Origin: a virus | Lineage: Duplodnaviria > Caudoviricetes | IMG/VR virus record: IMGVR_UViG_2706795344_000001 | Coordinates: 32,001 to 96,000 of that record | DNA: 64,000 nucleotides | Reading direction: 5' to 3' (one strand) | Shown: positions 21,246-64,000 of the stretch, one piece after another | How the letters are laid out: each line of letters begins with the position of its first letter | Position numbering within the stretch: the stretch's first letter is position 1 | Translations under genes and position numbers: made by a program | The notes under the pieces: model-generated | What the model was told of the DNA's origin: nothing | The model's input: only the letters and a program-made list of their open reading frames with translations | The model's database searches: none

Positions 21246-21611
21246 ATGGAAAAGAATTTTGGTAATTTAATTTTAGATTTATTTAAATTAAACACAGGAG
21301 ATGAGGTAATTCGTTTAGCAGATTTTAGAATGCTGTCTGCTGAAGGTGTTGAATATAATTTTTTCTTTGGCAATGTTTATAACTTTGAGATTAATCTTGC
21401 ACACTACAGTAAAGAGTTTGTGAAAGGTCAAGGGGATGTACATAACTTTGTGTTATCTGTAACACAGGGTGCTATTAAAAAGTCTTCAATAATTTCTCAT
21501 GAAGCTTTAAATATCGTTGGTGAACAAGGTCTCATTAAAACTATTAAACGTATTTGTAATGAAATTATTTCTGAGCGTTTGAATGAAGTGTTAGGGGGTG
21601 ATAGTGTCTAA
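21246..21611 (+). CDS. Hypothetical protein
   Basis: Strong RBS AGGAGG. Confidence 0.65.
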   Translation: MEKNFGNLILDLFKLNTGDEVIRLADFRMLSAEGVEYNFFFGNVYNFEINLAHYSKEFVKGQGDVHNFVLSVTQGAIKKSSIISHEALNIVGEQGLIKTIKRICNEIISERLNEVLGGDSV

Positions 21612-23667
21612 GGATTTAAAACTACGTTTTTTCGCAAGTGACTTGGAGGCAACTGGTTTAATCTGGCAGATGATACAACAAGGTGATGATAAGAAGCTTC
21701 ATAACTTTTGTGGTATTGAAATCAAGGATAGTAAGTTTCAAGATATCCAGATGCATCATCCACATACAAAGAAAGCAATTCAACGATTGCAAGATTGGAT
21801 TGATGACCCTGAAAATGTTTTCATTATTCATAATGCCTATACATATGATTTACATGCATTAGAATTATTTGGGTTAGATACATCTAAGATGAAGATTATT
21901 GATACTCTACCGTTATCTTGGTACTTGCATCACGATCGTGAACGTCATGGTCTTGAGTGGTGGGGTGAAGAGTTTGGTGTACCTAAACCGAAGATCGACA
22001 ATTGGGAAGACTTAACACAAGAAGAGTATGATCATCGTGTTATAGAGGACTGTAAGATTCAACGATTGTTATGGATGAAGTTGTGTACTGAATTTGGAGA
22101 GATGTATGGAGTTAAGACTCAAACAGAAGTATATAACCATCCAGCATTTAAGTACATTCAATTTAAGTCTAAGCAATTGGCTGAGCAGATGCGTAATAAG
22201 TGGAAATTTAATGTAGAGGGTGGTAAGAAACTCTATGAGGAATTAGAAGCTGAAATTGCGACACGTACAGAAACATTGAAGTCTGTAATGCCAAAAGTAC
22301 CTAAGTATGCTAAACGTAAGCCACCAGCTAAACCTTATAAAGCTAATGGTGAACTTTCGGCTACAGGTGAGAAATGGAAAAAACTTTGTGAAGATAATGG
22401 GTATGATTTTAATACTTATCGAGGTGAGATTCAGGAACTTACTAAGTATGAGGAACCAAACCCTGCATCATCACAACAGAAGAAAGCTTGGTTGACCAGC
22501 TTAGGTTGGGAGCCAATGACCTTTGAATACAAGCGTCAGCCAGATGGTACTACACGTGCTATCCCTCAGATTAATAAGAAAAACTCTGGTGGATTGGTAT
22601 GTGAGTCTGTATCTTTACTTGCTGAAGAAGTTCCAGAGGTTAAAGCTTTAGAAGGTCTGGGAATTGTTAACCATCGATTTAGTATGGTTAAAGGTTGGTT
22701 AGAGAACCATGAAGACGGGTATTTGATTGCACAAGCTGGTGGATTCACAAACACATTACGTTTGAAACACCGTATTCTTGTGAACATGCCTTCTGGTCGT
22801 GTACCTTATGGTTTGGCTATCCGTGGATTGCTTGAGGCACGTGAAGGATGTACATTAACTGGTGCAGACTTAAGTTCCTTGGAGAACCGTTGGAAGTTCC
22901 ACCATCAGTACCCTTTAGACCCTGATTATGTAGAGGCACAGATGTCAGATGACTTTGACCCTCACTTAGCACTAGCTGAGATGGCAGGGTTATTAGATGC
23001 TGACGATGTAAACTTCTATAAATTATTTGAAAGTGGTTACACCATCCCAGAAGAGTGTTATACTGATGAGCTTAAGCGACGTATTGCTAAAGCTGAGAAG
23101 GATGAAGACTGGAAGCACTCAGAGATTAAGCGTATTGCTAAAATCCGTGGTGTTGGTAAAAATGGTAACTATGCTTTACAATATGGTTCTGGTGTTGAGA
23201 CTTTGGCCCGTACTGCTAAGATTACAAGAAAAGAAGCTACAAAGCTTAAGGCTGGTTATGATAAACTTAACTGGACTATTCCTGTTATCGCTAAAGCACA
23301 GCGTGTTAAGGATTTCAAACATGGACGATTCTTGTACAATCGTGAGAATAAGTTCTGGTATCCATTAAAGGCTGAGAAAGATAGATTCTCTACTCTTATT
23401 CAAGGTAGTGGTTCTTACACTCTCGACTTGTGGATTATGAAGTTCTTCCAGATTCGCAAGAAAGCTATTGAATCAGGCCGTATTAAGTTTGCTAGATTGT
23501 TGGGTACATTCCACGATGAATTGATCTTAGAGCACCGTACAGAGGATTCTGAGGCTATTCGTGAGATGTTAAAGGAAGCTATTGACTTAGTTAATAAATC
23601 ATTAAAGCTTTCTGTAGACTTGACATGTGATATCAAACAAGGTAATACTTACTCGGAGATACATTAA
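21598..23667 (+). CDS. DNA polymerase family A (T7-like, Tyr at the position equivalent to PolI 762) with 3'-5' exonuclease
   Basis: Exonuclease DLEATG, HNAYTYD and EDC; polymerase ADLSSLE (motif A), RGVGKNGNYALQYG (motif B) and FHDE (motif C). Confidence 0.95.
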   Translation: MIVSKDLKLRFFASDLEATGLIWQMIQQGDDKKLHNFCGIEIKDSKFQDIQMHHPHTKKAIQRLQDWIDDPENVFIIHNAYTYDLHALELFGLDTSKMKIIDTLPLSWYLHHDRERHGLEWWGEEFGVPKPKIDNWEDLTQEEYDHRVIEDCKIQRLLWMKLCTEFGEMYGVKTQTEVYNHPAFKYIQFKSKQLAEQMRNKWKFNVEGGKKLYEELEAEIATRTETLKSVMPKVPKYAKRKPPAKPYKANGELSATGEKWKKLCEDNGYDFNTYRGEIQELTKYEEPNPASSQQKKAWLTSLGWEPMTFEYKRQPDGTTRAIPQINKKNSGGLVCESVSLLAEEVPEVKALEGLGIVNHRFSMVKGWLENHEDGYLIAQAGGFTNTLRLKHRILVNMPSGRVPYGLAIRGLLEAREGCTLTGADLSSLENRWKFHHQYPLDPDYVEAQMSDDFDPHLALAEMAGLLDADDVNFYKLFESGYTIPEECYTDELKRRIAKAEKDEDWKHSEIKRIAKIRGVGKNGNYALQYGSGVETLARTAKITRKEATKLKAGYDKLNWTIPVIAKAQRVKDFKHGRFLYNRENKFWYPLKAEKDRFSTLIQGSGSYTLDLWIMKFFQIRKKAIESGRIKFARLLGTFHDELILEHRTEDSEAIREMLKEAIDLVNKSLKLSVDLTCDIKQGNTYSEIH

Positions 23668-30754: not shown

Positions 30755-30780
30755 AATCCAGCCTTAGTGCTGGATTTTTT
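30755..30780 (+). terminator. Intrinsic terminator
   Basis: ATCCAGC-cttagt-GCTGGAT followed by a T run. Confidence 0.7.
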
Positions 30781-30799
30781 GTTATATAGGAGTAGTAAA

Positions 30800-33706
30800 T
30801 TGTCAGGAAAATATACATCAATCTTAATGCAAGAATCGAACTCATATGTGGATAGATTCCCTCAGTTCGTGGATGCAATTACATTTCAAAAGGAGGATTT
30901 GTTCTGGACAGAGAAAGAGATCAAAGTTGAAAAAGATGAACAGGACTTAAAACATAATATCCTACATTCGCAAGTTCACGCTTTGATGTTCAACCAACGA
31001 CTCTTTACTAAATATGAAGATGTCATTGGTAATGATTACTGGATTGGTGTTGTACATAAGAAGTATAAGTGTCATGAAATTCGAAGACTGGCTATTTGTT
31101 TTGCTGATGTCGAGAATAACATTCACTTCCCATTCTATCGTCGTGTGAACGAAGTTTTAGGGACCCATAACGATGAATTCTATGATGCATTTGAGACAGA
31201 CCCTATTTTAGTGGAACGTGTTAAATTCATGCAGGAATTGGTGGCATCGAAAGATACACTGGCATCTATGGGTGGATTTGCTTTCATGGAAGGTGCAGTA
31301 TTATTTACAGCATTTGCTATGATCAAGTCTCTCGGTGTTAAAGGTCAGTCATTTATGCCTAATTTGATTTCAGGTATTAACATGTCTATCCTTGACGAGA
31401 ACTTTCACATGCAGACGGCTTGTGAGATTTTCCGTACACAGTTAGAACTTGAGAATCGTACAGAGGAGGATGTTCGTAAGCTTAAAGAGGCCATCTATAA
31501 GCATGCTGAGAATGTCTTGGAACATGAATACATTATCATTAATGCTATGTTAGCTGAAGGTGATATTCCTTTTGCTTCTAAGAAGGAGTTGCAAGCATTT
31601 GCTCGTCACCGTGTTAACGTTGTATTAACAACTTTAGGTTTCCCTGAGTTAGCCACATTTGATGAGACAGATGATACTATCTCTGAGTGGTTCTATGAAT
31701 TCATGGGTGGGTATACAAGTAACGATAACTTCTATTCTCGTGGTCGTAACTACAAGAAAGAGTTCTCTGCTGTTGACTATGACATTATCTCAAATGGTGC
31801 TGTAGAGGAAGTACTTGCACAAATCCCTGATGAGTATTTAGACCAAATGGGTATTGACTTGAATCGTAAGTTCGAAAAGACTTTAGAGGAAGAGTTAGAG
31901 GCCAAACGTCCTAAACGTAAGAAGCACAACAATGCGGAAGATGCTTTATATGTTCCAGATTACAGTCGTGAACGTAAAGAGATGCAAGCACGTGGTGAAG
32001 CTCCTGAGTGGATGGCAACGGCTGGATGGCAGTTATTCAAGAAGAAATATCTTAACGGTGACTGTAAGACTCCAAAAGACCAGTACATGCGTATTGCTAA
32101 GTGTTTAGGGCAGTATGCACCTGAAGTTTACCCTTCTTGGTGGAATACTATTCCATATTGGGCTGGTTTGACATGGGAAGAGGCATTCTTCAAAATCATG
32201 TGGGATGGTTTCTTAAGTCCTTCAACTCCTGTACTTTCAAACACAGGTACAGATTTTGGTATGTCGGTATCATGCTCTGGTGCTGTAACTGAAGATAGTG
32301 TTGCTGGGTTCTATGACGCTCGTAAGATCAATGCATTACTTTCGAAAGAAGGTTTTGGTACTACAATTGATTTAGATCGTATCCGTGGACGTGGCATGCC
32401 AATGAAGGGTGGTATTGCCAATGGTGCTCTTCCTGTAGCTCGTATGTTCCGTCAGGATGCTTTAGATATCAGCCAAGGCTCACAACGTCGTGGTGCTACA
32501 GCTTGGTATTACAGTGTGGAAGGTTTGGACTTTGATGAATTATTACACTTCTTAGAGTATGATACGGATGGCAATAATGGTGGTTGGAAAATTACTAATG
32601 AGCTTCTTAACCGTGTCTTAATTGGTGATACATTAGCTATTGAACGTTTGAATAAAATCTTAGCTGTTCGACACCATGTAGGTTTGGGTTACGAATTATT
32701 TATCGATAAGGTGAATGCTCGTCGTCCTCAGATGTACAAAGATCGTGGTATGATGGTTTCTACAAGTAACCTATGTACTGAGATTACATTGTTTAGTGAC
32801 CCTGAACATACATTTACATGTGTATTGTCAAGTGAGAACTTAGTTCGATTTGATGAGCGTCCAGAGAACTTGGCCTTTGTTGGTACAGTGTTCCTTGACT
32901 GTGTGGCTGAAGACTTTATTCAGAAAGGTTCTAAGATCAAAGGTCTTGAAACTGCTGTTGAGTTTACTAAGAAAGGCCGTGCTCTTGGTTATGGTACAAT
33001 GGGCTTTGCTTCATACTTAATGCGTAACGACATCGAGTATGGTTCAATGGAATCATTCTGGAAGAATAAGAAGATTTATTCTACCCTTGAAGCAGAAACA
33101 AAAGCAGCTTCTAAATGGTTGGCTAAAGTTCTTGGTGAACCAGAGTGGTGTGAAGGTTATGGTGTTCGTAATACACACTTAATGGCTATCGCTCCTACTA
33201 AGTCTACAGGCTTATTAATGGGTGGTGACTCTGAGGGTATTAATGTTCCGTCAGCATTTGTATTTGCACAAGATACTCCAGCTGGAACTGTATTCCGTAT
33301 TGACCCATCATTCTTGATGTTGTTGAAACGTAAAGGTCTATATAAAATTGACCCTGAAACAAAACGATTAACACCTGAAACTGAGGCGTTATTAAAACGT
33401 GTGTCAGACAACCTTGGTAGTGTGCAAACATTAACAGATGTCTTGACAGACAAAGAACGTGCTGTATTTAAAACAGCTTATGAGATTAACCAGTACCGTC
33501 ATATTGATTTGTGTGCTCAACGTCAAGAACATATTGACCAAGCTCAATCAATCAACTTATTCATTGCGAATATGTCGGCTCAGGAAATCGCTAAGTTGTA
33601 TATGTATGCTGCACTTAACCCTAATATCTTGAGTTTGTATTACCATACTGGTATTCGTGACTCTCGTATTGGGGAGAATAAAAACGAATGTGAATCTTGT
33701 CAATAA
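30800..33706 (+). CDS. nrdB-nrdA: Class I ribonucleotide reductase, beta (NrdB) and alpha (NrdA) subunits fused in one ORF
   Basis: N-terminal half: FWTEKE, YE, ENNIHFPFY, EGAVLF, DENFH. C-terminal half: SPSTP, VSC, SNLCTEI, TCVLSS, APT, QAQSINL, LYY and terminal CESC. TTG start at 30800 after AGGAG. Confidence 0.9.
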   Translation: MSGKYTSILMQESNSYVDRFPQFVDAITFQKEDLFWTEKEIKVEKDEQDLKHNILHSQVHALMFNQRLFTKYEDVIGNDYWIGVVHKKYKCHEIRRLAICFADVENNIHFPFYRRVNEVLGTHNDEFYDAFETDPILVERVKFMQELVASKDTLASMGGFAFMEGAVLFTAFAMIKSLGVKGQSFMPNLISGINMSILDENFHMQTACEIFRTQLELENRTEEDVRKLKEAIYKHAENVLEHEYIIINAMLAEGDIPFASKKELQAFARHRVNVVLTTLGFPELATFDETDDTISEWFYEFMGGYTSNDNFYSRGRNYKKEFSAVDYDIISNGAVEEVLAQIPDEYLDQMGIDLNRKFEKTLEEELEAKRPKRKKHNNAEDALYVPDYSRERKEMQARGEAPEWMATAGWQLFKKKYLNGDCKTPKDQYMRIAKCLGQYAPEVYPSWWNTIPYWAGLTWEEAFFKIMWDGFLSPSTPVLSNTGTDFGMSVSCSGAVTEDSVAGFYDARKINALLSKEGFGTTIDLDRIRGRGMPMKGGIANGALPVARMFRQDALDISQGSQRRGATAWYYSVEGLDFDELLHFLEYDTDGNNGGWKITNELLNRVLIGDTLAIERLNKILAVRHHVGLGYELFIDKVNARRPQMYKDRGMMVSTSNLCTEITLFSDPEHTFTCVLSSENLVRFDERPENLAFVGTVFLDCVAEDFIQKGSKIKGLETAVEFTKKGRALGYGTMGFASYLMRNDIEYGSMESFWKNKKIYSTLEAETKAASKWLAKVLGEPEWCEGYGVRNTHLMAIAPTKSTGLLMGGDSEGINVPSAFVFAQDTPAGTVFRIDPSFLMLLKRKGLYKIDPETKRLTPETEALLKRVSDNLGSVQTLTDVLTDKERAVFKTAYEINQYRHIDLCAQRQEHIDQAQSINLFIANMSAQEIAKLYMYAALNPNILSLYYHTGIRDSRIGENKNECESCQ

Positions 33707-53029: not shown

Positions 53030-53968
53030 ATGGGTGTAGCCATTCATAAATATATCAGCTTACGTACACCTAAAGAGCAGATTGAGTTGGATATATCTTC
53101 ATTTGCTGATGGGACTAAACGTGTGATCATTCCAGATATTGATCAGTTTGATATGCAGAAAGAATTTCGAATAGATGTGTACCATCGTAGTTTGGACGAC
53201 ATCATGATTGTTGCACAGATTGTAGATATTATACGTCGTAATACACGTATAATTCCAGACATTACATTGACACTAAACTCTCCAGCATATATGCGATATG
53301 ATCGTGTAATGTTGAAGACTCGTCGAGATGCTTTTGTTCTCAACCAGTTTGCTGATATGCTTAAGTGTACAGGTGTAAACAAAATCCTTGTCTTAGACCC
53401 ACATAGCGAAGTCTTTCGTGAGTTGATGAATCTTAAGGGTGTAATGACTATTGAGTTGCGTCAATCTGGTTGTCTTGATGATGTGGTTCGTGAGTATATG
53501 GACCTTGGTATGTATCCTATCACAAGTAATATGCAAACCAAATATGATATCTTAGTTCCAGATGCTGGAGCAGCTAAGAAATGGTCTGCCTCACGAGGTC
53601 GTAAGATTTACAACTCTACAAAGAGTCGTAATCCAAAGACAGGTCATCTATCTGACTTTGCTATTGATGATGCTGACTTTGAAAAATTGATGCAGAGTAA
53701 GCAAGAGCGTTTGTTGATTGTAGATGATATCTGTGAAAATGGTGGGACCTTCATAGGATGCGTTGAGATGCTACGTAAGCGAGGCTTTACTAAACCTGTG
53801 GATTTATATGTAACACATGGAATCTTTCCTAAACACGAGCCTATGTTGCTTATGGGAGAGACATTTGAGAACATTTATATCCATAGTTGTAAGTTGGACA
53901 CATACAATGCCTTAAATACTTTCTGCAACTCTAAAATATTTGCATTAAATACTTATACTGGTTATTGA
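53030..53968 (+). CDS. adps: PRPP-synthetase homologue, likely Adps (ADPR-PP synthetase) of NARP1
   Basis: F.DG, Y.RYDR, LDPHS, VPDAGA.K, K.R, LIVDDICENGGTF and YVTHGIF; paired with a NAMPT homologue. Confidence 0.75.
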   Translation: MGVAIHKYISLRTPKEQIELDISSFADGTKRVIIPDIDQFDMQKEFRIDVYHRSLDDIMIVAQIVDIIRRNTRIIPDITLTLNSPAYMRYDRVMLKTRRDAFVLNQFADMLKCTGVNKILVLDPHSEVFRELMNLKGVMTIELRQSGCLDDVVREYMDLGMYPITSNMQTKYDILVPDAGAAKKWSASRGRKIYNSTKSRNPKTGHLSDFAIDDADFEKLMQSKQERLLIVDDICENGGTFIGCVEMLRKRGFTKPVDLYVTHGIFPKHEPMLLMGETFENIYIHSCKLDTYNALNTFCNSKIFALNTYTGY

Positions 53969-53998
53969 CAGGTACGTGGGGGCATAGTAATATGCTCT
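53965..53998 (+). promoter_or_regulatory. Sigma70-type promoter with -10 in a hairpin
   Basis: TTGACA-17-TAATAT; GGGCATA-gtaa-TATGCTC. Confidence 0.55.
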
Positions 53999-54020
53999 CA
54001 CAATTTTTATGAGGTGCTTT

Positions 54021-54242
54021 ATGAAAGCAAAGATTATAGCAAGTCAGGAAAGCCTTATTGGTATGTGTCTTGGCGGTGTTACGGTACAAGGGAAACCACT
54101 GGAAGCTGGGCTAATTATTGAAGTAGAGCTTGCTGATCACGATGTTAGTGGTAATGTATACTCATTCATTGGTGAGCTGGGTGATGATGAAGGTGTCCTA
54201 TGGTTCATCTATGGTGATTTATTAGAGATTATTGAGGAGTAA
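54021..54242 (+). CDS. Small hypothetical protein
   Basis: RBS GAGGTG before ATG 54021. Confidence 0.55.
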   Translation: MKAKIIASQESLIGMCLGGVTVQGKPLEAGLIIEVELADHDVSGNVYSFIGELGDDEGVLWFIYGDLLEIIEE

Positions 54243-54247
54243 TTTAA

Positions 54248-56064
54248 TGACATTTTTGGAAAAGAAAGCTTTACTAGAAGAACAAATGTTTGATGCTGTA
54301 CCAAAAGTAAATCCATTCTTATATTGGACAGACTCATATAAAGATTCTCACATTCGTTTCGAAGTTGAAGGTGTTAAGTACATCTATTCAAATGCTACGG
54401 CTCGTTTTGGAACTTACATGCGTGAATTGCTAGGTGATTATTACACTGATGAATTTGTTGTATTTGGTATTCAGTGGATGCTTGCACGTTTCCACGCTAT
54501 GGCTAAGATTGGGTTCTTTGATCGACCTAAACAAGAAGTCTTGGATGAGATGTTAGATGTTCTTGGACCTTATATCGGTGAAACTGATGTTAGTCGTTTT
54601 GGTGATCTGCATGATCTTGGCTATGTACCATTAATCTTTAAGGCATTACCTGAAGGTACAGTTGCACCTATTGGTACTCCATTCTATACATGTGAGAATA
54701 CATTGCCAGAGTTCGAGTGGCTATCTAATTTCTTAGAATCTGGTATGTCTACCGATACTTGGAAACAGTTGACAGTTGCTACAGTAGCATATGCTTTCCG
54801 TAAGATCAGTAACCAGTTTGCTTTGGAGACTCAGGGTACTCTTGAAGGGACAGAGTGGCAGAATCATGACTTCTCAACACGTGGTCAGTCTGGTTTTGAG
54901 TCTGGTGCAATTAATGGTGTAGCATTCTTGCTTAGCTCTTGTGGTACTGACAATAAGCCATCGTTGTGGGCTGCTAAAACATTCTATATGAGTGAGAACT
55001 CAAGTGATGTAGTGTTATGTGGTTCTGTTCCTGCTGGTGAGCATAGTGTTTCGACGTTAGGTATTCAGTCTTATATTAAAAAGGCTCAGATGGATGGTGA
55101 AGAGTTATCTTTACTTGATGCGGAAATTAAGTACGCTAAGTTTATCGCTACTGAACGTTTCCCTAAAGGTATTGTCTCTTATGTCGCAGATTCATATGAT
55201 TATTGGTCATTCATTACTAAAGTTCTTCCAGCTATTAAAGAAGATATTTTGGCTCGTGATGGTAAATTTGTTGTTCGGGGTGACTCTGGCAATCCTATTA
55301 ATATTATTGCTGGCTATCGTATTTTCGATGCTGATACAGATACTCGTGTTAAAGGTAAATTTAATACCATTACTCAGTTGATGTTGAACACACATTTATG
55401 GTGGGACTCTAAATGGGAAGTGGTTAAATTTAAAGACCAGTATTACCGTATTACCGAAGAGGGTATCGGCATTGAGGAAATCTCAGGTGAAGAGGCTCAC
55501 GGAACTATTCAATGTCTGTGGAATGAGTTTGGTGGCACTGTAAATGATCTTGGATTTAAACATTTAGATTCTCATATTGGTATGATTTATGGTGATGGGA
55601 TTACCATCCAACGCTCTGTGGAAATCTTATCTCGATTAAAAGAGAAAGGTTTTGCATCTACTAACATTGTGTTTGGTGTAGGTAGCTACTCGTTGAACAT
55701 GTTGTCTCGTGACCATCTTGGTATTGCTATTAAGGCAACCAATGCAATCATTGACATTAATGGTGAAGACGTAGAGATGCCAATCTACAAGGACCCTAAG
55801 ACAGATACAAGCAAGAAATCTGCTAAAGGTTATTTGGTGGTATCTGCTGATAAAGAGGGTAACATCATTACTTTGGATGAACAGAGTCGTGAAGCAGCTT
55901 TACGTACAGGACTATTAGAAACTGTGTATATGAATGGGCAATTCCAAGTATTAACTACAGTACCAGAGATTCGTGAACGTTTGTGGAATCCTAAGTCCTT
56001 AGCTCCTCCTGTAGTTGAAGAGCCAGAAGCTGAGCAAACTCAACCAGAGGAGTCTGTAGAGTAA
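54248..56064 (+). CDS. namat: Nicotinamide phosphoribosyltransferase homologue, likely Namat of NARP1 (start approximate)
   Basis: TDSYK.SH, HDFSTRG, GTD, SVPAGEHSV, SYVADSYD, RGDSG, IYGDGIT, FGVGS, KAT, KDPKTD and KKSAKG. Confidence 0.8.
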
Positions 56065-56534
56065 TGATTGAGGAACGCATCAAAGGTGATGTGTTCCCTT
56101 ATCTTATGAGGAAAAACAATAATTTCGATGCATTCGTGCATGGTTGTAATTGTTTCTGCACTATGGGTAAGGGGATAGCTCCATTGGTAAAGAAAAACTT
56201 TCCTGTAGCTTATGAAGCTGATTTGTTGACAGAGAAAGGTGATCGAAGTAAGCTTGGTGACTATACGTGGGCTTGGGTGAATGAGTATAAACTTGAAATT
56301 ATCAATGCTTACACTCAGTATGACTATAGAAGAGCGTATGGCGATTCAGATGTGAATGTCAGTTACCATGCGATTCGAGAAGTGTTCAGGAAACTTAACA
56401 AAGATTATCGAGGCAGTCGAGTTGCGATACCTAAGATCGGTGCTGGGTTAGCTGGTGGAGATTGGGAGTTGATAGAAAAGATTATCAATGAAGAGACACC
56501 AGACCTACACATTACATTGTTTTATTTAGATTAA
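56064..56534 (+). CDS. Macrodomain protein (ADP-ribose binding/hydrolase)
   Basis: GD, HGCNCFCTMGKGIA, INAYTQ and PKIGAGLAGGDW. Confidence 0.9.
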   Translation: MIEERIKGDVFPYLMRKNNNFDAFVHGCNCFCTMGKGIAPLVKKNFPVAYEADLLTEKGDRSKLGDYTWAWVNEYKLEIINAYTQYDYRRAYGDSDVNVSYHAIREVFRKLNKDYRGSRVAIPKIGAGLAGGDWELIEKIINEETPDLHITLFYLD

Positions 56535-60995: not shown

Positions 60996-61002
60996 GGTAT
61001 TC

Positions 61003-61179
61003 ATGTATACATTAGTTTTAACAATTACGATGTTTGGTTGGATTTGGGATGATGTCCGAACTGTTAGTGTTGATGGCTTTAAGAGTTTATCAAACTGTCA
61101 GAATGCTGGAGAGCAGCTTAAGAAAGAGCACACCAAAAACTTTATAGGTAAAGCTACATATACTTGTGTTAAGAGATAG
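61003..61179 (+). CDS. Small protein with hydrophobic N-terminus
   Basis: RBS GAGG; F.S...C..AG.......CVK. Confidence 0.55.
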   Translation: MYTLVLTITMFGWIWDDVRTVSVDGFKSLSNCQNAGEQLKKEHTKNFIGKATYTCVKR

Positions 61180-61299
61180 ATATTGGAGGTATAAATGGTC
61201 ATTTATTCATTCAGTACAGAAGAGGCAAAGCGTTGCCCTGAGTGTCTTGGCTATACTCATATGCATAAACCTTGGTGTAATAATTGGTAGGAGTTTAAT

Positions 61300-61539
61300 A
61301 TGAAATTATATTTAGTGGTAAATGAACAATCTGGTGAATGTGTTGGTTTTAATGACTTAGCTGATGCACAACATGCAGCTACAGGGAAGAACTTTAGTAG
61401 TGATCAGCGACAAGGTTGGTACAGTACTTTGGGTTCAGAGTTCCGTGAAAGTGTTCTTGAAAGTGGTGATGAGCAGTTACGTATCGCTGAGGTGGAAATT
61501 GATTTGGCTACATTAAAAAATGCAGAGGACTTTAAATGA
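61300..61539 (+). CDS. Hypothetical protein
   Basis: RBS AGGAG. Confidence 0.6.
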   Translation: MKLYLVVNEQSGECVGFNDLADAQHAATGKNFSSDQRQGWYSTLGSEFRESVLESGDEQLRIAEVEIDLATLKNAEDFK

Positions 61540-61886
61540 AAAAGTTAGTTAAAGAATTCCATGAACATAGCTTAAAGCAGCGTAATACCAAGCGTACAAG
61601 TAAGATGCTCTGCGATGCTGCATTCTACATCATGAATAGCAAAAGCAGTAGAGAAGCTATTATTGTGGGAGCTACTGAGCATCATTTAGCTGAGATGAAG
61701 GCTACAGCAAATCGACTTTTCAATTCTCACATAGCATGTTCTATGGTATTCGTGACAAGAAGTGCCTTAGATGACAAAGTTAAAGGTAGAAATGAGAAAA
61801 CTTACAAGGTGTTCTATGACCACTTTGCTTTAGAGTCAGAGATTGCTAAACTGTTAGTAGAGTACACCAAGTACGAGGAGAACTAA
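61536..61886 (+). CDS. Miniature degenerate terminase/P-loop ATPase-like protein (paralogue 1)
   Basis: QRNTKRT (RxxGKT-like), IIVGAT...A and KG...KVFYDH (Walker B-like). Confidence 0.45.
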   Translation: MKKLVKEFHEHSLKQRNTKRTSKMLCDAAFYIMNSKSSREAIIVGATEHHLAEMKATANRLFNSHIACSMVFVTRSALDDKVKGRNEKTYKVFYDHFALESEIAKLLVEYTKYEEN

Positions 61887-62267
61887 GTGGAAAGAATACC
61901 TAAAGATATGAAAGAGGCATCGGAACATTTTAGGGCTATTAGTTCTTTTAAACATAGAATTAATCGAAGTGTTCGAATGCTTTGTCAGGCATTGTTCCAT
62001 GTGTCAAATGGCTATTCTGGAAATCATTCTATAGTTGTTGCTTTGGATGAAGATCATAAGAAACAGCTAGAAGATAAAGCTAAGGAGATGTTCTCTACTG
62101 AGGTACTTAAACATATTGGATTCATTAGTTACGAAAAGTATAAGAAGTTTAATAGGGAAGGTGAGGTGGTAGGTTTAAAATATTTTATCGACCCTGCTTG
62201 CCTTGAAGATGATATCGCTGTACTATTAAAGAAGTGGGAACAGTACGATGACCCAAGAGATTATTAA
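61887..62267 (+). CDS. Miniature degenerate terminase/P-loop ATPase-like protein (paralogue 2)
   Basis: Aligns with 61536-61886: R...RS.RMLC, IVVA, A..MF, F.D...LE..IA.LL.....Y. Confidence 0.45.
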   Translation: MERIPKDMKEASEHFRAISSFKHRINRSVRMLCQALFHVSNGYSGNHSIVVALDEDHKKQLEDKAKEMFSTEVLKHIGFISYEKYKKFNREGEVVGLKYFIDPACLEDDIAVLLKKWEQYDDPRDY

Positions 62268-62278
62268 CGGAGACTGAT

Positions 62279-62785
62279 ATGTCACACTTTGGTATAGACC
62301 CAAGAGCAGCTAAAGAATTTTGGAATGAGAAAACCAAAGAGCCATTCGATTTTGACTGGAAAGAAATCAATGCAGATATGGCTGCTGCTGTAGTACACAA
62401 CCTAAGAGTATGTGAGGCGTTCCTATTTGGACGTTTCCCTAGCGCTGAGGAAGCTAAGGAACATATCGATGTGTGGGCAGAGTGGCAAGAGATACGTCGT
62501 AATAACCCTGTAAGCTTCTTCAAGCCACGAAAGATGCCAAACGTTGGAACTATAGGGTATCCAGAAGAACCTTGCTTAAACGAGCTTACACGCTTAATTA
62601 GAGGTAGTATTGCTAAGGACGAACTGTGTATGGTGGTTGGTAAACCTACAAATGCATCTACTGTACGTCCTGAAGTGTTGGAGTTTTATAAGAGTCGTCG
62701 TAGTAGTAATCCTATATTGCATGTAGCTCTTGAAGACACTAAGCCTTATCTAATTGATAGGTACTTAGGAACCTCAATAAAATAA
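62279..62785 (+). CDS. Protein carrying an EF-Tu-like NVGTIG motif and a dead DnaB-helicase H1/H1a fragment
   Basis: Ungapped register with this phage's own helicase segment LRDLDD...STGKSV...FSLED. Confidence 0.5.
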   Translation: MSHFGIDPRAAKEFWNEKTKEPFDFDWKEINADMAAAVVHNLRVCEAFLFGRFPSAEEAKEHIDVWAEWQEIRRNNPVSFFKPRKMPNVGTIGYPEEPCLNELTRLIRGSIAKDELCMVVGKPTNASTVRPEVLEFYKSRRSSNPILHVALEDTKPYLIDRYLGTSIK

Positions 62786-62801
62786 TCTTGGAGATTTTGA
62801 T

Positions 62802-63002
62802 ATGAGTCATGACTTACACACAAGAACAGCTATGTGGATGTTTGATGTTGGGGCTAGTGAAGTGACGGAAACTCAGAGACGTGGAGCTAAAGCATATAAC
62901 TATGCTAAACAGTATGGAGCTAGTAATACAACAGCTACTGTTGAAGCCATCAAAGCTATGCGAGAGGGTAAGTGTGAAGTGTACAGGAATGAGGGAGCTT
63001 AG
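62802..63002 (+). CDS. Stand-alone DNA polymerase A fingers/O-helix (motif B) mini-protein
   Basis: DLH..TA...F.V...EVT..QRR.AKA.NY...YG.S; RBS GGAG. Confidence 0.7.
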   Translation: MSHDLHTRTAMWMFDVGASEVTETQRRGAKAYNYAKQYGASNTTATVEAIKAMREGKCEVYRNEGA

Positions 63003-63014
63003 GCTCTCTTTTTT
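62992..63014 (+). terminator. Intrinsic terminator closing the decoy-like cluster
   Basis: AGGGAGC-ttag-GCTCTCT-TTTTT. Confidence 0.75.
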
Positions 63015-63019
63015 ATTGT

Positions 63020-63100
63020 CCAGATATTCCCTAGATATTTCCAGATATTCCAGCAAATTGCAAAAAGTTTTGAAAAGTTTTTGAAAAATTTTGAATTTTC
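63020..63100. repeat. Short tandem repeats (AGATATT x3) and phased A/T tracts (AAAA..TTTTG x3)
   Basis: ccagatattccctagatatttccagatattcc; aaaaagttttgaaaagtttttgaaaaattttg. Confidence 0.6.
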
Positions 63101-63101
63101 C

Positions 63102-63130
63102 TTGACACCTATGTATGTTATAAATATAAT
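63102..63130 (+). promoter_or_regulatory. Consensus sigma70 promoter
   Basis: TTGACA-17-TATAAT with upstream A/T tracts. Confidence 0.8.
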
Positions 63131-63136
63131 GAAATC

Positions 63137-63354
63137 TCTTTAATGTAGTAAGTTAATAAGTTGATTTAAGATTGGTGGCATTGCAGTGCCAAGTATATAG
63201 GAGTGTTGGGTATGTGAACTTATGTGGTAGATAGGTGTGACACTATGGAAGATTGGTAGACGAAGTGCTATACATTTCCAGCATCTTGATGGAGGTTCAT
63301 GAAAGTGTCTAATGAGCTGTGAGAAATTGCCCATGCTTTGTCGTGGGCTTTTTT
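63137..63354 (+). ncRNA. Candidate ~220 nt small transcript containing only minigenes
   Basis: Bounded by a consensus promoter and the terminator GCCCATG-ctttgt-CGTGGGC-TTTTTT; ATG-initiated ORFs are at most 7 codons. Confidence 0.45.
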
Positions 63355-63703
63355 GTGCCTGTCTGTCTGGCCTGAAAAAATTTTTAGAGGGCATGATGAC
63401 TTTTGAAAATTAGAGTGAGATTACAGGAATATCCATTTTTACAACTTGGGTTAAATTTAAACACCTTGGATTTTGAAGAAACTGAAAAGTTAGAGTTTGT
63501 CAATAGGTATTAACAAAAAATATTGAATTATTTTTATTGACTTTAATTATCATCTATTGTATTCACATGCGCCCGCTCTTTATAAACGTGACCTTGTTTT
63601 GTTGTGGTGATAGTATGAAAGGTATAAAGAGACATTCCAAATGATTATTTAGAACTATAAATTTATTTAATTCATGCACTTATAAAATTTATATAAAATT
63701 TTC

Positions 63704-63731
63704 TTGCATTTATTTTTAGATTGTTTACTAT
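63704..63731 (+). promoter_or_regulatory. Putative early promoter
   Basis: TTGCAT-16-TACTAT upstream of the 63771 ORF. Confidence 0.4.
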
Positions 63732-63770
63732 GTGCTTATCGAAACGAAACAAGCCTAGAAAGGTGATGAG

Positions 63771-64000
63771 ATGGAACAAATTACATTAGATTTATTTAGC
63801 TTTGAAGAACTCTCTAATGAAGCTCAACAAGTGGCAATTGAAGCAGTCCGTAACAGTGAATATTATTTATCTCATGATTGGTATGATTCTACAAAAGAAG
63901 ATTTTCACCAAATCTTAAACATTATCGGCTTTTATGATGTTAAGAGTCAATTTTCTGGTTTTAATTCTCAAGGTGATGGGGCGAGTTTTTCAGCTAACTA
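63771..64000 (+). CDS. Early-region protein, F.ELS..A...DW...FSGF.SQGDGA family (3' truncated)
   Basis: RBS AAGGTG; MEQITLDLFSFEELSNEAQQ...FSGFNSQGDGASF; this family is often loosely labelled antitoxin-like. Confidence 0.65.
   Translation, partial: MEQITLDLFSFEELSNEAQQVAIEAVRNSEYYLSHDWYDSTKEDFHQILNIIGFYDVKSQFSGFNSQGDGASFSAN

Follow-up and report, generated by a model that had tools for sequence, protein, structure and literature searches.

A stand-alone polymerase fingertip mini-protein encoded by Saclayvirus-type Acinetobacter phages

Near the end of the DNA stretch analyzed here, a 66-codon open reading frame (ORF) of a Saclayvirus-type Acinetobacter phage is a genuine protein-coding gene. 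From a family A DNA polymerase (PolA) of bacterial type, its product has just helices N and O, with motif B; a short, variable helix follows as the third. As a non-catalytic form of a known domain that stands alone it is new, and it belongs to a recurrent class of phage mini-proteins that has no name; its members start before a D-x-H motif and match the polymerase profile as far as motif B. We infer that the mini-protein is a non-catalytic binding mimic of the polymerase fingertip with either a host protein or a triphosphate nucleotide as its partner.

Results

The mini-ORF and its locus

The window, as we call the whole 64,000-nt stretch, covers positions 32,001 to 96,000 of a 104.9-kb virus record (IMG/VR IMGVR_UViG_2706795344_000001) from an Acinetobacter myophage of the genus Saclayvirus. 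The mini-ORF is intact, lies on the plus strand at 62802-63002 and begins with ATG; its translation is the one quoted in a sequence-only reading of the window that had singled it out. A Shine-Dalgarno GGAG at 62789-62792 (+) sits 9 nt upstream of the start codon. In the five phages aligned, the GGAGATT, the GA that comes next and the ATGAGT start are identical and two spacer bases vary. The gene ends in an intrinsic terminator at 62991-63016 (+), with an 8-pair stem (62991-63010) followed by a T run. The stem contains the last two codons of the mini-ORF, the TAG stop sits in the loop, and the hairpin sequence is identical among the aligned relatives of the locus.

Such an invariant hairpin, with codons and stop embedded in it, would suit a regulatory leader-type ORF, in which translation up to the stop in the loop would control downstream read-through and the peptide would be secondary. 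Purifying selection along the whole peptide (below), including residues with no role in RNA structure, argues against this, as does the same peptide type in other phages that have no such terminator arrangement, and we consider a leader function extremely improbable.

The flanks of the mini-ORF are 84-90% identical to those in the phages Liucustia, Ab_121, Aci05, TAC1 and others. The protein closest to its product is from phage KissB (95% identity). A search for proteins of near length returned just KissB and one metagenomic protein, and a word-based search for longer relatives returned none. Scanning IMG/VR with the mini-ORF gave one orthologue and one intein-bearing full polymerase. The latter, a metagenomic viral family A polymerase (L009:157-3648), has an HNH-containing intein in motif A and shares a D-L-H-T-R-T-A-M-W-M-F stretch with the mini-ORF product. 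No PADLOC family matches the mini-ORF product, no tRNAs were found, and an Rfam scan of 61000-64000 gave no credible match.

Directly upstream, in the same operon, is a gene for a 168-aa protein (62279-62785, +) that is not part of the mini-protein. We considered and rejected a two-gene module made of this neighbor and the mini-ORF, as the neighbor is not homologous to the genes upstream in Friunavirus or Ralstonia phage RP13; the upstream genes of the mini-ORFs in the window phage, Friunavirus and RP13 are unrelated to one another.

Several other features of the window were recorded. Two tandem paralogues at 61536-62267 (116 and 126 aa) both match phrog_5437, a family of unknown function, with E ~1e-36. 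Downstream of the mini-ORF, 63102-63352 looks like a small non-coding RNA unit, judging by a perfect TTGACA-17-TATAAT promoter, a strong terminator at 63329-63348 and, between them, about 215 nt that hold no sizeable ORF; it has no Rfam match. At 53030-56534, PRPP-synthetase-like, NAMPT-like (NAPRTase family, E=6e-26) and macro-domain genes stand in a row that would fit an NAD-salvage counter-defence module. In a single 979-aa ORF at 30767-33706, the two chains of ribonucleotide reductase, small and large, are fused.

The product is confined to the N and O helices

The sequence-only reading had expected a PF00476 (DNA_pol_A) match limited to motif B, and this is what the profile search returned: residues 3-44 align to profile positions 184-225 of 381 with E=1e-8 and a score of 35.0 bits against a cut-off of 34.3. 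The matched stretch corresponds to helices N and O with motif B, and several PHROG polymerase families match it as well. The gap-free alignment to bacterial Pol I proposed in that reading was recovered by phmmer against the PDB, in which residues 4-42 align to residues 383-421 of Bst Pol I with 21 of 39 identical (E=1.7e-5). The product also aligns with Taq 636-678 and, more weakly, with Klenow 408-446 (chain numbering; E=0.048). Its N-to-O helix spacing is the same as in Bst, Taq and Klenow, which agrees with the bacterial Pol I-type scaffold claimed for it.

Residues 4-14 (62811-62843, +) form the D-x-H motif and N helix; in the Bst/Taq/Klenow alignment Asp4 and His6 correspond to Klenow D732 and H734. 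The O helix with motif B follows at 62868-62915 (+) and contains Arg26 (62877-62879), Lys30 (62889-62891), the variable Tyr34 (62901-62903) and Tyr38 (62913-62915). The motif B pattern R-x3-K-x3-F/Y-x3-Y-G is present as R26, K30, Y34, Y38 and G39. Arg26, Lys30 and Tyr38 are the counterparts of Klenow R754, K758 and Y766, the three residues earlier named as kept. Over the whole mini-protein, Asp4, His6, Phe14, Arg26, Lys30, Asn33 and Tyr38 are retained.

An AlphaFold2 model of the product (mean pLDDT 80.5) predicts helices at residues 5-14, 23-37 and 42-55. When the PDB was searched with this model using Foldseek, ranks 1-50 among the matches listed were all family A polymerases, at E ~0.04 for this small query. 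The positions of Klenow L764 and I765, hydrophobic and presumably buried in Klenow, are Lys/Arg and Gln/Glu in the mini-ORF alleles, which is what one would expect of a fragment that has adapted to existence on its own.

The product lacks motifs A and C, as had been noted from the sequence: the ORF has no room for them, and motif B is all that the Pfam match covers. The palm with its catalytic aspartates (motifs A and C) is missing from the product, and no other PolA match is found in the flanks. Lacking palm, motif A and motif C, the mini-protein cannot polymerise and, by its sequence, is non-catalytic and unable to copy DNA.

The mini-ORF is a conserved cassette under purifying selection

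A syntenic ORF of 55-69 aa is present in 16 of the 16 Acinetobacter Saclayvirus-type records found. The ORFs fall into four main allele types with just 45-49% protein identity to the window allele. In the CP14 allele (L006:2501-2710) the in-frame stop is lost and the terminator hairpin is read through, giving a 69-aa product. Net charge differs, the window allele being near neutral and the 55-aa alleles basic.

With 10 distinct alleles, the Goldman-Yang codon model gave an omega of 0.135 (2dlnL 68.4 versus omega=1); the 55-aa clade alone gave 0.165 (2dlnL 39.2). Pairwise Nei-Gojobori dN/dS values were 0.08-0.2 at dS 0.2-1.6. Within Saclayvirus, to which this statement is limited, the mini-ORF is under strong purifying selection as a separate gene. 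Asp4 and His6 are invariant in 12 Saclayvirus alleles. In 20 stand-alone relatives Asp4, His6 and Arg26 are invariant, and Lys30, Asn33 and Tyr38 nearly so. Position 34 (Klenow F762) is Tyr, Thr, Ile, Val or Leu among the syntenic ORFs.

Nucleotide identity to Liucustia is 53% in the ORF body versus 91% in the upstream flank and 79% in the downstream flank. Upstream flank, ORF and downstream flank each group the phages differently. This divergence within the ORF body, together with the discordant groupings, marks the mini-ORF as an old cassette that assorts and recombines separately and is kept in frame by selection.

Relation to the resident polymerase and other possible origins

The phage encodes its own family A polymerase of 689 aa (window 21598-23667). 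The sequence-only reading called motif B of the mini-protein phage-like. The part of this claim that stands is that the resident polymerase does read NYALQYG; on the other side, since position 34 varies among the orthologues, the "phage-like" Tyr34 is specific to the window allele, and just 9 of 19 residues are shared. In the resident enzyme, a D-P-H motif is separated by an insertion of about 50 residues from a motif B of its own (R-x3-K-x3-Y-x3-Y-G). Descent of the mini-ORF as a copy of this polymerase was rejected on the 9/19 identity and on the roughly 50 extra residues that separate the N and O helices in the polymerase.

A decayed polA beside the mini-ORF had been named as a finding that would undo the proposal. 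When all six frames of the complete 104.9-kb genome were searched with PF00476, the true polymerase and the mini-ORF alone were found, so there are neither frameshifted polA remnants nor pieces of a split polymerase. A split-polymerase subunit was likewise rejected: complementary pieces are missing from the genome and the resident PolA retains its N/O segment.

In Aci05 an HNH endonuclease gene (L002:4507-5073) lies between the mini-ORF and its terminator; the mini-ORF there sits directly before it. This HNH gene has no Pfam hit. It looks like a recent insertion, since near-identical copies occur only in two Aci05 records and the gene is absent from the 11 other syntenic loci inspected. Its relatives are widespread free-standing phage HNH genes, and in BSP10 and TaPaz they are not within polymerase genes. 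Reported PolA intron sites are at E. coli positions 674, 676 and 881 (PMC3428280); the ends of the mini-ORF, at about 729 and 775 in E. coli numbering, do not coincide with them. An exon remnant of a homing endonuclease or intron was rejected on these grounds (HNH only in Aci05, different intron sites) and on an omega far below 1.

The same observations bear on the mini-ORF being a relic in general, that is, a translated but functionless intron exon scrap, split-polymerase piece or remnant of a replaced polymerase. The Aci05 HNH gene speaks for a relic, as do the C-terminal halves of split PolAs, which start at the same D-x-H position, and the repeated polymerase swapping reported for a wider clade including Saclayvirus (PMC11348598, which makes no mention of fingertip-type polymerase fragments). 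Against it stand the restriction of HNH to Aci05, the mismatched intron sites, the lack of any other polA piece in the genome and a resident polymerase with N and O helices of its own. The selection test largely refutes a relic, and we regard it as highly improbable.

Stand-alone fingertip proteins in other phages

Similar stand-alone ORFs, envisaged in other phages by the sequence-only reading, were found in Friunavirus, Phimunavirus, Kotilavirus and Ralstonia phage RP13. Two match Pfam positions ~174-221: gp08 of Friunavirus IME-200 (59 aa), which also occurs in at least four other Friunavirus phages, and ORF9 of RP13 (66 aa), near the start of its record. The other two, a 60-aa ORF of Phimunavirus CX5 and the 60-aa ORF5 of Kotilavirus PPWS2, were recognized by tblastn similarity; ORF5 is annotated "DNA polymerase". 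One GenBank record carries the note "belongs to DNA_pol_A superfamily". The Autographiviridae copies (Friunavirus, Phimunavirus and Kotilavirus) sit within a series of small genes in the early region, where the genome starts, and precede the replication genes where these were in view. In RP13, ORF9 is beside exonuclease III and ligase genes, and a second PolA-like match lies elsewhere in the record. In the Friunavirus form both the His and the Arg are gone, and constraint on it appears weak.

One such mini-protein family is phrog_38792, a 62-position family of unknown function. The window ORF has no match to it at E<=1, and the metagenomic proteins P0006, P0008, P0020 and P0039 match it at 1e-5 to 1e-8. 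At E<=1e-3, a search of 1.84 billion representatives returned 440 hits to a profile built on four members of the family. Among the best metagenomic hits are many short proteins that start M-x(1-5)-D-x-H and diverge after motif B; many other short proteins among the 440 are ordinary polymerase fragments from short contigs. Ten of the metagenomic short proteins were checked, and their Pfam match is just at ~183-225.

Two further arrangements were seen. In P0020 and P0026 (101-112 aa), the fingertip is joined to a C-terminal domain, common to both, of unknown family. In the permuted mini-proteins P0024, P0058, P0070 and P0100, the last found on 15 contigs, the O helix is followed by a TGR...NLQNIP-like motif. 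In real polymerases the TGR...NLQNIP-type motif precedes motif A and lines the dNTP site.

We set the limits of the class as an own start from a few to ~20 residues before the D-x-H, a match within Pfam ~174-225 and a length of ~55-110 aa. The window ORF lies within them in start, Pfam extent and length. Our literature searches found no paper describing stand-alone PolA fingertip mini-proteins.

Discussion

What the mini-protein may bind

The residues retained in the mini-protein belong to a surface of known role. In solved ternary complexes this conserved face contacts the triphosphate of the incoming dNTP (Taq H639, R659 and K663; T7 H506, R518 and K522). The mini-protein would present this dNTP-facing surface (His6, Arg26, Lys30 and Tyr38) in free form. 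Tentatively, our preferred reading is a protein mimic of the fingertip that engages a host factor, a nucleotide binder being nearly its equal. The mimic would engage, by competition, a host factor that normally recognizes or attacks that surface of family A polymerases, and it would be deployed with other accessory or counter-defence genes. We favor a protein mimic on the cassette-like turnover of alleles, the leading-end position of the Autographiviridae copies among small genes, and the accessory neighborhood. In the window phage that neighborhood has NAMPT-like, PRPP-synthetase-like, macro-domain and PspA-like genes 3-9 kb upstream of the mini-ORF.

More broadly, though we hold this to be doubtful, several phage families may use free copies of the fingertip as an early counter-measure that blocks a host sensor or effector or absorbs an alarm molecule resembling a dNTP. 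The sensor or effector would be one of host immunity that recognizes the least mutable surface of family A polymerases, and the fast allele turnover of the mini-ORF would then be the trace of an arms race.

Several points count against a mimic. The parent family conserves these same residues most strongly, and their retention may in part be inherited. By resembling a defence trigger, a mimic could on its own set off the sensor; the logic of a decoy needs a binder that does not activate, and we know of no precedent for a non-activating binder of this kind. A near-neutral window allele beside basic 55-aa alleles fits no single ligand well. The loss of the His and the Arg and the apparently weak constraint in the Friunavirus form suggest that the class may not have one shared function.

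The alternative closest to a protein mimic is a nucleotide binder. The mini-protein would grip a nucleoside triphosphate, or a signal that bears a triphosphate, via His6, Arg26, Lys30 and the aromatics at positions 34 and 38 without catalysis, and could thereby buffer or sequester dNTPs or a dNTP-like immune signal. This is possible, if unlikely, from the residues involved. All PolA residues known to contact the triphosphate are retained across divergent stand-alone members, and the permuted relatives add the TGR...NLQNIP-like motif. A synthetic 50-residue peptide of E. coli Pol I reportedly binds substrates and DNA, going by the title of a 1989 study by Mullen, Shenbagamurthi and Mildvan (PMID 2684960; a further study by Mullen et al., PMID 8442659, is from 1993). 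On the other hand, position 34, whose Klenow counterpart F762 packs on the sugar, is Thr, Ile, Val or Leu in most Saclayvirus alleles. Isolated fingers without the palm carboxylates and metal ions would be expected to have weak affinity, and fast allelic turnover with differing net charge is unusual for a small-molecule pocket. The known sponges of nucleotide signals (Tad1, Tad2 and Acb2 type) are oligomers with ligand pockets and have been shown to bind an immune signal; for the mini-protein, sequence similarity was sought in Pfam, PHROG and PADLOC.

A third explanation is an accessory to replication: the mini-protein would attach to primer-template DNA or to the replisome of the phage and modulate the resident family A polymerase. 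It is consistent with the resident PolA of the window phage, the second PolA-like match in RP13, the exonuclease III and ligase genes that adjoin RP13 ORF9, and the basic 55-aa alleles. Autographiviridae encode family A polymerases, which also fits. We judge this role improbable: in the window phage the mini-ORF is ~40 kb from the replication module, the mini-protein resembles the resident polymerase no more closely than it does bacterial Pol I, and cassette-like exchange is atypical for a core part of the replisome.

Significance

If the mini-protein is a mimic, it would uncover a factor by which the host targets phage polymerases, and a tactic, general among viruses, in which fragments of enzymes serve as baits. 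Should it bind nucleotides, it would rank as the smallest polymerase-derived module in nature that grips a nucleotide. On either reading, this is an unstudied gene class in Acinetobacter phages that are therapeutic candidates. Automatic annotation sometimes mislabels genes for such mini-proteins as "DNA polymerase" (phi1_092033 and PPWS2).

Comparison with known systems

The closest known counterpart is the fingers of bacterial Pol I (helices N, O and O1; motif B). The mini-protein is homologous to them without gaps, with 54% identity to Bst over 39 residues, and has the same His/Arg/Lys/Tyr constellation, the same N-to-O spacing and a predicted helical fold like theirs. Unlike Pol I, it has only ~45 of the ~400 residues of the polymerase domain, with no palm, thumb, motif A or motif C. 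It also differs in having its own start codon, ribosome site and terminator and in being polar at Klenow L764 and I765.

The C-terminal halves of split family A polymerases (phrog_6982; P0049 and P0065) start within a few residues of the same D-x-H. They are 213-321 aa long, extend through motif C and have an N-terminal half as their complement, whereas the mini-ORF stops after motif B.

The ORFs of IME-200, CX5, PPWS2 and RP13 are the same PolA excerpt in the same size class, set among small genes outside the replication module, and their phages carry, or are expected to carry, a full PolA like the window phage. They differ in sequence, with just 23-46% identity to the window ORF. The synthetic E. 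coli Pol I peptide, which is said to span residues 728-777, essentially the segment that the mini-ORF encodes, is a laboratory excerpt of the fingers, whereas the mini-ORF is a natural gene.
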